Shown here piece by piece: positions 45,847-47,544 of a stretch of 54,146 nucleotides of DNA. Numbering within the stretch: position 1 is the stretch's first letter; the number at the start of each line of letters is the position of its first letter. A program made the position numbers and the translations under genes. Source of the DNA: Candidatus Shapirobacteria bacterium (GTDB taxonomy: Bacteria; Patescibacteriota; Microgenomatia; UBA12405; UBA6130). Under the pieces are notes generated by a model, which made no database searches, was not told the DNA's origin, and worked only from the letters and a program-made list of their open reading frames with translations. The stretch spans positions 1 to 54,146 of the forward strand of contig JALWDZ010000005.1 of assembly GCA_027039485.1 (NCBI GenBank), in the 5' to 3' direction.

Positions 45847-47544
45847 GAAAGGAGGTGATCCATCCCGACCTTCCAGTCGGGATACCTTGTTACGACTTAG
45901 CCCTCATCGCTGGGTTTGCCTTCGTCCCTCTCAAGGAGAGCCTTCGGGCACCCCCAACTTTGCTGACTTGACGGGCAGTGTGTGCAAGAGGCGAGAACGT
46001 ATTCACCGGGGCCTGCTGATCCCCGATTACTACCAATTCCGCGTTCATGCAGGCGAGTTGCAGCCTGCAATCCCCACTGAGAAGCCGTTTTTGGGATTAG
46101 CTCCGCCTCGCGGCTTGGCAACCCATTGTCGGCTCCATTGTAGGATGTGTGTAGCCCTGGACGTAAGCGACATGCTGACTTGACGTCATCCCCGCCTTCC
46201 TCCCCGCCCTTTCTGCCCACGAGAACTGTTTCTCTAACATCCTCTTGAGCAAAAAGGGCGGGGCTGTCTCCTGTGACACGAGTAACACAGGACAGGGGTT
46301 GCGCTCGTTACCCCACTGAAGGGAACACCTCACGGCACGAGCTGACGACAGCCATGCATCAGCTGTCCCGCCTTTTCTACCTTACGATAGACCCTTTCTC
46401 CGTTTCCGGAGCAGGAAAAAGCGGGATGTCAAGCCCAGGTAAGGTTCATCGCTTCGTATCGAATTGAACCACATGCTCCACTGGTTGTGCGCCTCCCCGC
46501 CAATTCGTTTGAGTTTCAGCCTTGCGGCCGTACTCCCCAGGCGGTCCGCTTAACGGGTTACCTACGACACCCCAGTATAAACCAGGGCATCTAGCGGACA
46601 TCGTTTACGGCTAGGACTACCCGGGTCTCTAATCCGGTTTGCTCCCCTAGCTTTCGTCCTTGAGCGTCGGTAGAATCCTGGCCACCTGCCTTCGCCCTCG
46701 GTGTTCCTTACCATATCCACGGATTTCACCCCTACATGGTAAGTTCCAGTGGCTCCGAATCCACCCTAGCCTCTCAGTATCCAACCCCTTTCTCCGGTTG
46801 GGCCGGAGTCTTTGAAGTCGGACTTAAGAGGCCGCCTACGGGCCCTTTACGCCCAGTAAATCCGGGTAACGCTTGCACCCTACGTATTACCGCGACTGCT
46901 GGCACGTAGTTAGTAGGTGCTAGACCTCGTGCTGCGCACGAGGCCGCGGTTTACAACCCGAAGGCCTTCATCCCGCACGCGGCGTCGCTGCGTCAGGCTT
47001 TCGCCCATTGCGCAAGATTCCTGGCTGCTGCCTCCCGTAGGAGTAGGGCCCGTGTCTCAGTGCCCTTGTGGGGGGCCACCCTCTCAGGTCCCCTACCCGT
47101 CGTTGCCTTGGTAGGCCGTTACCCTACCAACAAGCTGATGGGCCGCACGCCCCTCCCAAAGCGGGCAGTTACGCCCTTTACCCCAAAGCTTCGCTTTGGG
47201 GAAATCCAAAATTCTAAATCCGAAATCCTAAACAATATCTAAATTCAAATGACCAAATGACCAAAACAAAGAAGACGACAAGGATGTTTTGAACATTTGG
47301 ATTTTGGTCATTTGAACATTGTTTAGGAATTAGGATTTTGTGATTCGAATTTCCCACAAGGCGAAGCCTTGGGGGCTATCCAGGATTACCTCCGATTTCT
47401 CGAAGCTATCCTTGACTTTGGGGTAGGTTCGTACGTGTTACTCACCCGTTCGCCGCTCCCCGACGTAACGTCGGGGCGCTCGACTTGCATGCCTAAGGCG
47501 CGCCGCCAGCGTTCACCCTGAGCCACGATCAAACTCTCAGCTCA
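45847..47544 (-). rRNA. rrs: 16S rRNA, solitary, with insertions (ends approximate)
   Basis: Reverse complements of the 27F, 338, 515, 806, 1492 regions and the anti-SD GATCACCTCC; about 1.7 kb. Confidence 0.97.
47181..47375 (-). repeat. Repeat-derived ~195-nt hairpin insertion in 16S rRNA (about helix 9)
   Basis: Imperfect inverted repeat; 47286-47340 matches 22797-22851 at 51/55 nt. Confidence 0.9.

Follow-up and report, generated by a model that had tools for sequence, protein, structure and literature searches.

A dispersed palindromic repeat replaces a hairpin of the 16S rRNA gene in a Candidatus Shapirobacteria genome

Introduction

Some bacterial rRNA genes are interrupted by intervening sequences (IVSs) that are excised by RNase III; they are known from 23S helices 9, 25 and 45 of Salmonella, Campylobacter, Rhizobiales, Coxiella and Leptospira, and from rare cases in 16S rRNA. 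The standard substrates of RNase III are near-perfect helices of 60-90 bp. In CPR bacteria, insertions are found in nearly half of the 16S rRNA genes and in most 23S rRNA genes.

Mobile palindromes form a second group of relevant systems. REP and REPIN sequences, which occur with RAYTs, and MITE-like repeats are short, non-coding, hairpin-forming palindromes that are strictly extragenic, are present in tens of copies per genome and are older than speciation. We know of no REPIN inside an rRNA gene, and a joint literature search on REPIN, RAYT and rRNA returned no title describing one. The palindromic elements of Rickettsia, a bacterium with a reduced genome, can sit inside functional genes, including RNA genes, and lie in frame in protein genes. 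In organelles, the GC clusters of yeast mtDNA are mobile palindromic elements, and double-hairpin elements of Allomyces mtDNA were reportedly described by Paquin et al. in 2000.

Brown et al. found insertions in CPR rRNA genes that, according to the introduction of Tsurumaki et al. 2024 (PMC11270868), do not stay in the transcripts; this statement is chiefly about introns. The main text of the same article treats short ORF-less CPR rRNA insertions as uncharacterized and probably IVSs of the RNase III type. This main text contains none of the words “repeat”, “palindrom”, “hairpin” and “intergenic” and makes no link to dispersed repeats; the supplementary site maps may list a 16S site near position 187. 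Nor was a link between short CPR rRNA insertions and dispersed repeats found in our searches of the openly accessible literature.

Results

Structure of the 16S rRNA cassette

The window (the whole stretch of 54,146 nt that was analysed) comes from a Candidatus Shapirobacteria genome of 695 kb with a coding fraction of 0.88, hereafter G000, and contains a complete 16S rRNA gene (Table 1). Alignment of this gene to the Rfam SSU model showed that the hairpin of model positions 177-200 has 173 extra nucleotides in its loop (47191-47363); in an alignment to E. coli 16S rRNA, the extra sequence follows position 187. We take the hairpin at this site to be helix 9. The region 47170-47390 folds into one long hairpin with a dG of -91.5 kcal/mol; shuffled versions of the region had a mean dG of -49.7 (z = -9.86), and an equally stable fold was obtained in 0 of 200 shuffles. 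The alignment and the fold bear out the preliminary description of this DNA, according to which a long hairpin stands in place of the short helix-9 stem.

The same description held the insert to be ORF-less and devoid of a group I intron core, and both statements stand. The longest ORF is 47 amino acids, no Rfam group I or group II intron model matched the insert at gathering level and no intron model was present among its 20 Rfam matches at E ≤ 10, so that it shows no sign of a group I/II intron. The top Rfam matches were plant miRNA-precursor hairpins (51 bits against a cut-off of 211).

Table 1. Coordinates of the 16S rRNA gene, its cassette and related repeats in the window
Feature	Position	Strand	Basis and remarks
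16S rRNA gene	45848..47544	minus	1697 nt; Rfam RF00177, 1363 bits, model 1-1533, complete bacterial SSU
Whole cassette in place of helix-9 hairpin	47181..47375	minus	195 nt, ORF-less; Rfam and E. coli alignments, fold, comparison with G002
5′-end clamp (RNA sense), GC-rich palindrome (stem, 3-nt centre, stem)	47353..47375	minus	read from sequence
Element right arm (profile), AT-rich	47285..47352	plus	blastn-short, 14-copy alignment, nhmmer
Element apical loop, purine-rich	47268..47284	plus	fold; A/G-rich loop at same position in intergenic copies
Element left arm (profile), AT-rich	47202..47267	plus	intergenic-only profile; limits from 14-copy intergenic alignment
3′-end clamp (RNA sense), GC-rich palindrome	47181..47201	minus	read from sequence
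Island A: left arm only, then GC-rich nested modules	3713..3791	plus	nhmmer 66 bits, no ORF overlap
Island B, long variant	22547..22862	plus	left arm 22547-22622, ~170 nt of nested GC-rich modules, right arm 22791-22862; nhmmer 49 + 50 bits
Island C: left arm only	35182..35241	plus	nhmmer 43 bits
Short left-arm fragment	50160..50205	minus	nhmmer 23 bits, E 2e-5, weak match

As can be seen, the native helix-9 hairpin is wholly replaced by an AT-rich hairpin between two GC-rich, individually palindromic end segments (clamps). Including its centre, the 3′ clamp is nearly the reverse complement of the 5′ clamp, so the two are inverted and not direct copies of each other; three pairs of the 3′ clamp show compensatory changes among four genomes. 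The 5′ clamp is identical in the related genome G021, and analogous clamps of other sequence are present in G006 and G022. In the favoured consensus fold of the four helix-9 inserts, each clamp forms a local hairpin in addition to the long one, and 14 of the 54 pairs show compensation, but one row of the alignment is badly aligned at the 5′ end and a long-range alternative fits the same data.

The cassette element belongs to a family of intergenic repeats

Matches of the cassette arms to three intergenic islands, noted in the preliminary description, were recovered with blastn-short. The right arm (47284-47340) matched island B at 22795-22851 with 93% identity over 57 nt, and the left-arm stretch 47223-47267 matched 3745-3791 (89%), 22572-22616 (87%) and 35205-35241 (89%). 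The genome-wide BLASTN search that had been suggested there as a check, performed with the 195-nt cassette, gave 85 hits at E<1e-3, far beyond chance, which fall into 56 loci on most contigs. Full-length dispersed copies span positions 8-165 of the 173-nt insert with 78-85% identity by BLAST (for example, C16:82486-82645, E 1.6e-40).

An nhmmer profile was built from 14 intergenic copies, with no rRNA copies included. This profile matched the 16S insert with 123.3 bits (E 2.9e-36) on the plus strand and with 47.9 bits on the minus strand, i.e., the AT-rich element is antisense to the 16S rRNA. In the whole genome, 76 non-overlapping matches to an arm or to the full profile were found, 5 in rRNA and 71 elsewhere; when the latter were compared with ORFs of at least 90 amino acids, 67 had no overlap, 4 overlapped partially and none lay wholly inside. 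The number of repeat loci is about 64, of which roughly 60 are intergenic. The 16S segment is thus a full-length member of a family of AT-rich palindromic repeats, about 150 nt long and ORF-less, whose non-rRNA copies are all intergenic. Searches with the patterns of the two GC clamps returned one match each, both within the 23S rRNA gene and none on intergenic copies.

Like a MITE, the repeat is short and non-coding, has many dispersed copies and ends in inverted repeats. No constant direct repeat of the kind left by target-site duplication was detected at the ends of the 14 aligned intergenic copies. Two intergenic loci were compared with the congener G001 and both are filled there as well. 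A role of the repeat as a terminator or promoter was ruled out because the types of spacers that contain it (31 tandem, 12 divergent and 6 convergent) track the background (247, 81 and 48) and its orientation in tandem spacers is 17:14.

The proposal of the preliminary description that a palindromic element landed in an rRNA helix can therefore be kept in part: the insert is a full-length member of a dispersed intergenic family, but it did not simply land in a loop, since the whole native hairpin is replaced.

Cassettes at other rRNA sites and in related genomes

The 16S insert is not an isolated case. Three sister cassettes, each replacing a peripheral hairpin, are present in the 23S rRNA gene of G000, where matches to the intergenic-only profile score 53.8, 73.2, 36.3 and 43.6 bits, and rRNA sites are filled patchily across the order, with at least 10 different 16S and 23S sites involved. 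The fourth insert of G000 has about 160 nt of nested modules, absent from G001. In the 23S rRNA gene of G001, cassettes are located after E. coli positions 276, 542-550 and 1725, sites that carry short hairpins in G000. All four rRNA cassettes of G000 are antisense to the profile; a uniform orientation of rRNA copies was ruled out by the 14:7 split (not significant) over 21 copies in 8 genomes. The 16S helix-40 extension, an extra loop of the 5S rRNA and a 303-nt insertion in the 23S rRNA have no other copy in the genome and are not members of the family.

An empty site in a close relative, the comparison proposed in the preliminary description, is provided by G002, a genome of the same genus, which has a short helix 9 with a 20-nt hairpin at the site of the cassette. 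The same genome contains a split 23S_rRNA_IVP gene inside a 16S insertion. Helix-9 inserts of at least 100 nt were found in 4 of 18 full-length 16S rRNA genes of relatives, analogous hairpins being located at the same site in three other assemblies (G021, G006 and G022), and one DNA run contains both filled and empty forms of this site. Also in use within the order are rRNA sites near E. coli positions 131, 550 and 1165, which correspond to the classical IVS helices 9, 25 and 45. Since site occupancy differs within one genus, it follows that DNA-level events add or remove cassettes.

The 16S rRNA gene of G021 is a mosaic of two lineages, with the 5′ domain grouping with G000 and the rest with G021's own family; it is a product of recombination or of a chimeric bin. 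The value of the insert common to both genomes as a sign of ancient insertion is thereby weakened.

Chimeras or recombinants do occur in these bins, and at other places the assembly is interrupted by the repeat, 10 of 63 loci being found within 300 nt of contig ends. The 16S cassette itself could accordingly be an artefact, either of misassembly that threaded a dispersed repeat into the gene or of a chimeric 16S. We consider this highly improbable. A false insert would have to exit and re-enter the 16S sequence at adjacent bases, the clamps are site-specific and are not part of the intergenic copies, and three other assemblies have analogous hairpins at the same site. As to the spanning of the junctions raised in the preliminary description, the right junction is crossed by one independent contig from a DNA run (47319-47457), whose 6 differences show that it comes from another strain; no bridging was seen at the left junction.

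Possible fates of the cassette transcript

The best explanation of these data, which we hold with middling confidence, is that the insert is an IVS-like hairpin cassette from a mobile palindromic repeat family, cut by RNase III and spreading as hairpin-forming DNA. Transcribed as part of the pre-rRNA, the cassette would form a long double-stranded hairpin that sticks out from the surface of the subunit, and it would behave as an intervening sequence, with RNase III cutting the long stem. The 16S rRNA would then work as two non-covalently held pieces, as in classical bacterial IVSs. We suppose that the element would be tolerated only at peripheral rRNA helix tips and in intergenic DNA, and that an rRNA copy would persist because only precise deletion is viable. 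As expected of an IVS host, G000 encodes an intact RNase III with catalytic and dsRNA-binding domains (an ORF of 260 amino acids on contig C26; PF14622 133.6, PF00636 92.2 and dsrm 51.2 bits).

Alternatively, the mobile-repeat cassette may be an expansion segment, a long helix exposed to solvent that stays in mature 16S and 23S rRNA. The peripheral position of the helix-9 hairpin, which the cassette extends as one coaxial helix, would suit retention. Conservation points in the same direction: between G000 and G001, the shared 23S cassette ins3 is 94.4% identical (152/161) and the unrelated 303-nt insertion 95.9%, matching the five compared 23S core segments (91-98%), whereas orthologous intergenic copies are 81.6% (133/163) and 76.5% (65/85) identical. 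A spacer that is discarded would not need the near-core conservation seen from one end of ins3 to the other, so that a retained segment fits at least as well. Six ins3 substitutions fall at paired positions, with the pair kept in 2 and broken in 4, too few to read. Of 21 copies resident in rRNA, 16 give a better fold, richer in G-U pairs, for the sense than for the antisense strand, but the same profile strand is also the better-folding one in 15 of 20 intergenic copies, so the asymmetry is partly intrinsic to the family. Against retention stand the intact RNase III with its dsRNA-binding domain and the statement, made chiefly about introns in the introduction of Tsurumaki et al. 2024 (PMC11270868), that CPR rRNA insertions leave transcripts. 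On balance, we judge retention to be possible but somewhat unlikely.

In 24 public sequencing runs, at most 29% of the sampled words of this organism were detected in any run. Three RNA-labelled runs (two of them flagged as possibly or probably DNA) covered conserved 16S parts only, with essentially no cover over 47193-47366, due to the absence of the organism from these runs. Joints across the insert region were seen in the RNA-labelled runs; they have short sides and come from 16S rRNA of other organisms.

Candidate transposases and the source of the copies

If the cassette spreads as hairpin-forming DNA, as the explanation that we favour has it, copying could proceed by means of a RAYT-like Y1 transposase or through template switching or gene conversion between palindromes. 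Two Y1_Tnp genes were found, on contigs C13 and C26, with Pfam Y1_Tnp scores of 43.2 and 24.4 bits (cut-off 23); the best NCBIfam match of their products is the REP-associated tyrosine transposase NF047646, with 53.6 and 57.4 bits, below the cut-off of 80. A different hairpin repeat, present in 12-14 genome copies, lies on both sides of the C13 gene, and the C26 gene adjoins or overlaps neighbouring ORFs and has no flanking repeat. Neither RAYT-like gene is thus flanked by the cassette repeat, contrary to what would be expected of a REPIN-RAYT system. Y1_Tnp and the repeat co-occur loosely across 31 related genomes (both in 10, repeat only in 3, Y1 only in 7 and neither in 11), which are kin and not independent of each other. 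No autonomous element with the same ends was found in a transposase search that covered Y1_Tnp only.

Outside the genus, the family is low-copy and mostly confined to rRNA, so that rRNA could be its reservoir instead of its target. In the extreme case the direction of spread would be reversed, i.e., the cassette would be an old rRNA-resident IVS of the order, and the approximately 60 intergenic copies would derive from an rRNA copy via DNA copying or an RNA-derived route. Several observations fit this scenario. The 16S inserts of G021, G006 and G022 match only 2-4 places in their own genomes, mostly rRNA; from end to end, the G006 insert matches 23S inserts of its congener G019 with 82% identity; diverged copies in other families are mostly within rRNA genes; all four G000 rRNA cassettes have as their sense strand the strand on which intergenic copies fold better; and strong matches to the intergenic consensus are limited to genus g1, 3 of 132 genomes of the order. 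On the other side, this count took 6 candidates per genome, and diverged intergenic copies elsewhere may escape BLAST. It also speaks against a reversed direction that the GC clamps of rRNA cassettes were not found on intergenic copies and that orthologous intergenic copies are older than the split of G000 and G001 and thus do not reveal which came first. We regard a purely reversed direction as quite doubtful.

A combined scenario, in our estimate unlikely though less so, is that a mobile cassette resides over the long term in peripheral rRNA hairpins and copies itself from hairpin to hairpin, between 16S and 23S helix tips and between lineages, by recognising or exploiting DNA hairpins; it would be held in place by the need for precise deletion, and the roughly 60 intergenic copies would stem from a burst, specific to the genus, that started from this reservoir. 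The GC clamps may then be a functional adaptation that, for example, closes the host helix and caps the two rRNA ends created when RNase III takes out the AT-rich stem.

Discussion

The homology of the 16S insertion to a genome-wide repeat family, together with filled and empty rRNA sites in one genus, suggests that short insertions originate as mobile palindromic DNA, and the old idea of IVSs as relics of mobile elements becomes testable. If rRNA is indeed the reservoir, many uncharacterized short CPR rRNA insertions would represent one class of mobile elements with a defined life cycle. There is also a practical side: cassettes add about 185 nt to 16S rRNA near the V2 region, break assemblies and coincide with the mosaic 16S of a related bin, which affects 16S surveys and the phylogeny of these bacteria.

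Similarly to REP/REPIN sequences, the cassette repeat is extragenic, is present in tens of copies, forms hairpins, has persisted since before speciation and coexists with RAYT-like genes; unlike them, it is an AT-rich unit of about 150 nt, and no cognate flanked RAYT, target duplication or autonomous partner was found. With Rickettsia palindromic elements it shares a reduced host genome and residence inside functional RNA genes, but none of its 71 non-rRNA matches lies inside an ORF. The double-hairpin elements of Allomyces and the yeast GC clusters are likewise small hairpins found in intergenic DNA and variable rRNA regions, with presence or absence among close relatives. Those organellar elements are GC-rich or double-hairpin; here, the sequence is unrelated, the hairpin is AT-rich with GC clamps, and the host is a bacterium, free-living or episymbiotic. 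The short CPR rRNA insertions described in the main text of PMC11270868 agree with the cassette in their Microgenomates-type CPR host, length below 200 bp, lack of an intron model, lack of ORFs and location at the tops of stem-loops.

The closest parallel is with classical IVSs. The cassette sits in an rRNA gene, where it takes the place of the tip of a peripheral helix that relatives have in a short form, its 5′ and 3′ ends pair into a long stem (as they do in the 23S cassettes), its presence among close relatives is sporadic (G002 is empty and the 23S cassettes of G000 and G001 differ), the order makes use of the sites near E. coli 131, 550 and 1165, and the host has RNase III and a reduced genome. 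In contrast to classical IVSs, for which excision is established and not, as here, inferred, the cassette includes 16S rRNA among its at least 10 16S and 23S sites across the order, contains nested smaller palindromes and belongs to a family with about 60 intergenic members.

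A Long Hairpin in Place of Helix 9 of the 16S rRNA

The 16S rRNA gene of the window is complete, and its alignment to the Rfam model places the extra sequence in the hairpin at model positions 177-200, which we take to be helix 9. The E. coli rRNA operon was used as the numbering reference for 16S and 23S sites. As the preliminary description held, the region is one long inverted repeat: positions 47170-47390 fold as a single long hairpin of -91.5 kcal/mol, compared with a shuffle mean of -49.7 (z -9.86), and none of 200 shuffled sequences folded as well. The same description saw neither an ORF nor a group I intron core in the insert. 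We agree on both points, since the longest ORF is 47 aa and no intron family was matched, either at Rfam gathering scores or among the 20 Rfam matches that lax filters allowed at E≤10. The best of these 20 were to plant miRNA-precursor models (51 bits, cut-off 211), which indicates a long hairpin and nothing more. Spanning DNA supports the right junction of the insert: one DNA run holds a contig bridging this junction with 6 differences, along with a contig carrying the empty form of helix 9 seen in the congener G002.

The helix-40 extension of the same gene is unique in the source genome (G000), and none of the other 17 16S genes in the comparison has it.

Locations of rRNA insertions and associated elements (C, contigs; L, excerpted loci; positions without a prefix are those of the window, contig C5)
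Feature	Location	E. coli position	Length (nt)	Description
16S rRNA gene	45848-47544, minus strand		1697	Rfam 1363 bits, model 1-1533
16S insert	47191-47363	after 187	173 (3 in model)	
16S helix-40 extension	46196-46260	after 1167	47	hairpin at Rfam model positions 1149-1170
G000 23S rRNA gene	C8:31404-35500 (L001 4405-8501)		4097 (2925 in model)	tRNA before, 5S after
23S extra piece 1		after 131	186	profile match 53.8 bits
23S extra piece 2	C8:33041-33336	after 1363	303	not a family member; common to G001, 95.9% identity
23S extra piece 3		after 1876	158	profile match 73.2 bits
23S extra piece 4		after 2131-2151	332	profile matches in both arms, 36.3 and 43.6 bits
5S rRNA	C8:35534-35682 (L001 8535-8683)		149	one hairpin loop of 40 nt (7 in model)
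Intergenic element with G001 orthologue (L064, C17)	C16:82471-82664 (L058)			
RAYT-like Y1 transposase gene	C13:12348-13019 (L056 1354-2025)			own hairpin repeat on both sides
G002 16S insertion	L018 2935-3291	near 89-101	~430	carries 23S_rRNA_IVP gene
G022 second 16S insert	L019	near 101	~180	AT-rich hairpin, nested GC palindrome
G006 23S insertion	L030	after 1951	705	
G030 23S insertion	L033	after 1923	728	

The Insert Belongs to a Dispersed Intergenic Repeat Family

When the 195-nt cassette was used to query the G000 genome (695 kb, 27 contigs), 85 blastn-short matches at E<1e-3 were retrieved at 56 loci. Full-length copies align to the 173-nt insert over positions 8-165, with identities of 78-85% and E values as low as 1.6e-40. 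The four repeat matches reported earlier within the window were recovered and are the visible part of this genome-wide family. Alignment of 14 intergenic copies defines a unit of ~150 nt in which a left and a right arm flank an A/G-rich loop. The two arms form an imperfect inverted repeat but differ in consensus, which gives the unit an orientation.

A profile built from these 14 copies gave 125 raw matches in the genome, or 76 non-overlapping ones, and it recognized the 16S insert with 123.3 bits (E 2.9e-36). Both arms are spanned by 23 of the 76 matches. The remainder are single arms, often paired with 150-220 nt of GC-rich nested modules between them ("long variants"). Three kinds of small GC-rich palindromes lie within or against the arms. 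At the intergenic locus shared with the congener G001, the G001 element has a 20-nt GC palindrome at both ends, whereas its G000 counterpart lacks the left one and has a different palindrome at the right; these differences show that the small palindromes are independently mobile. The G001 spacer also contains ~290 nt more repeat-rich sequence.

Five of the 76 matches lie in rRNA genes. Among the 71 others, 67 do not touch an ORF, 4 overlap one partially and none is wholly within one, on a greedy map of ORFs of at least 90 aa covering 88% of the genome. Merging of arms yielded 63 loci (64 in truth, as one merge fused two 23S cassettes). Ten of the 63 lie no more than 300 nt from a contig end, as expected of repeats that break assemblies. 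Occupied spacers are tandem, divergent or convergent in 31, 12 and 6 cases (background 247, 81 and 48), and the repeat is oriented 17:14 relative to flanking genes. This background-like distribution, together with the lack of orientation bias, disfavours a role as terminator or promoter.

Related Cassettes in the 23S rRNA

There is no 23S gene in the 54-kb window; it is found on another contig, and the rRNA genes thus appear unlinked. Compared with E. coli, the 23S gene contains four large extra pieces. The three that belong to the family fold as long hairpins (-108, -84 and -176 kcal/mol), the fourth piece being a long variant that contains GC-rich nested modules.

Two GC-rich clamps of ~20 nt enclose the AT-rich hairpin, both in the 16S cassette and in every 23S one. 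Each clamp is itself palindromic (stem, 3-nt centre, stem), and the 3′ clamp approximates the reverse complement of the 5′ clamp, centre included, so that two structures are open to the base, a single continuous helix or a pair of small local hairpins. A consensus fold of four helix-9 inserts preferred the local hairpins and revealed compensated pairs in the 3′ clamp; both models of the base fit. Three 23S sites that bear a short hairpin in G000 are occupied in G001 by clamp, AT-rich hairpin and clamp. The comparison shows that the cassette takes the place of the native hairpin and is not seated in its loop. The proposal that an element landed in an rRNA helix thus stands as regards family membership and has to be amended as regards the mode of insertion. 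The clamps are nearly identical among the three G001 sites and the fourth G000 insert, and the clamp motifs of the latter occur nowhere else in G000.

Other rRNA extras were also seen. The loop expansion of 5S rRNA folds as a GC-rich hairpin. A GC stem closes the 303-nt 23S piece, and the motif of this stem has the same closing role in several short hairpins of the 23S and in some intergenic modules. No further copies of this piece, of the 47-nt helix-40 extension or of the 33 extra 5S nucleotides were found in G000.

Occurrence among Relatives

The product of a neighbouring gene has its closest named relatives in CPR bacteria of the Microgenomates group. Full-length 16S genes were available from 18 of 31 genomes (G000 and 30 relatives), and helix-9 inserts of at least 100 nt are present in four of them, G000, G021, G006 and G022. 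The empty site sought in relatives is found in G002, where helix 9 is a 20-nt hairpin.

The 23S genes of G001 and G000 are 91-98% identical over the five core segments compared. Cassettes have been gained or lost between these congeners: G001 has three (after positions 276, 542-550 and 1725 in E. coli numbering) that are missing from G000. It also lacks the nested modules of the fourth G000 insert and differs in the first insert. Positions 227, 550 and 1165 are also used in other families of the order. Repeat matches number 59 in G000, 41 in G001, 8 in G002 and 0-7 in each of the other 28 genomes; among these 31 genomes, the family is abundant in this genus only. In the order as a whole, 3 of 132 genomes gave strong matches to the intergenic consensus when six candidates per genome were scored. 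Both intergenic copies tested are present at orthologous places in G001, indicating that the burst predates the G000/G001 split.

The 16S inserts of G021, G006 and G022 each find 2-4 places in their own genomes, mostly in rRNA. That of G006 matches 23S inserts of the congener G019 along its entire length at 82% identity; helix 9 of G019 itself has no large insert (47 nt extra relative to E. coli).

The G021 insert has the same clamps as that of G000, and the two interiors appear, from their sequences, to be in opposite orientation. However, the G021 16S gene (L002) is a mosaic. Over the first 570 nt it is sister to G000 (support 98/97) with 94.5% identity, compared with 89.3% for G002; over the remainder it joins G021's own family as sister (support 99/98), and identity to G000 is 83.9%. 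Either recombination within 16S or a chimeric bin would account for this, and the shared insert therefore does not count as independent support for an insertion of ancient date.

The additional insert in G022 places two cassettes in one 16S gene, near position 101 and in helix 9. The long 23S insertions of G006 and G030 lie near positions 1917, 1931 and 1952, given as intron-type for CPR 23S genes in passages of PMC11270868.

Excision or Retention of the Cassette

The cassette would be transcribed within the pre-rRNA, from which RNase III could then excise it; the resulting 16S rRNA would be fragmented yet functional, as with classical intervening sequences (IVSs). We give such excision an even chance. 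The G000 RNase III gene is intact, with catalytic and dsRNA-binding domains, and the very long stems favour cleavage. Classical IVS sites are used by the cassettes, which we also count for excision. The G002 16S insertion points the same way: its gene for a 23S_rRNA_IVP (intervening-sequence protein) is split, with ORFs of 48 aa (31.9 bits) and 61 aa (32.4 bits) against a cut-off of 33.8. Passages of Tsurumaki et al. 2024 (PMC11270868) regard short ORF-less CPR insertions as probable IVSs, a view that again favours excision.

Alternatively, the cassette may be retained in the rRNA as an expansion segment, a reading we consider less likely than excision. It draws on ins3, a 23S cassette common to G000 and G001, which is 94.4% identical between them when orthologous intergenic copies are 77-82% identical; this constraint exceeds what a discarded spacer seems to need. 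The long stems and the split gene in G002 weigh instead towards excision.

Possible Routes of Movement and Comparison with Known Systems

Two Y1 transposase genes are present in G000, and their best NCBIfam match is to the REP-associated tyrosine transposase (RAYT), below its cut-off. The gene on contig C13 is flanked by a different repeat and that on C26 by none. The C13 repeat has two stem motifs with 12 and 14 occurrences in the genome, 9 of each on C13 itself, and together with its gene has the appearance of a further REP-like system in its own right. Across genomes, which are kin, Y1 genes and the cassette repeat co-occur loosely. As an alternative drawn from the template-switch literature, template switching or gene conversion between palindromes might have spread the cassette with no dedicated enzyme.

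The 16S cassette is not recognizable as an intron by Rfam, and neither RAYT-like gene of G000 is flanked by the cassette repeat. In the open literature searched, which included the main text of the CPR survey PMC11270868, we found no report of a bacterial rRNA insertion belonging to a dispersed family of intergenic repeats. In appearance the cassette resembles REPIN- or MITE-type repeats, and it probably works like a bacterial IVS. Among elements with copies in intergenic DNA as well as in variable regions of rRNA, its nearest analogues are organellar hairpin elements.
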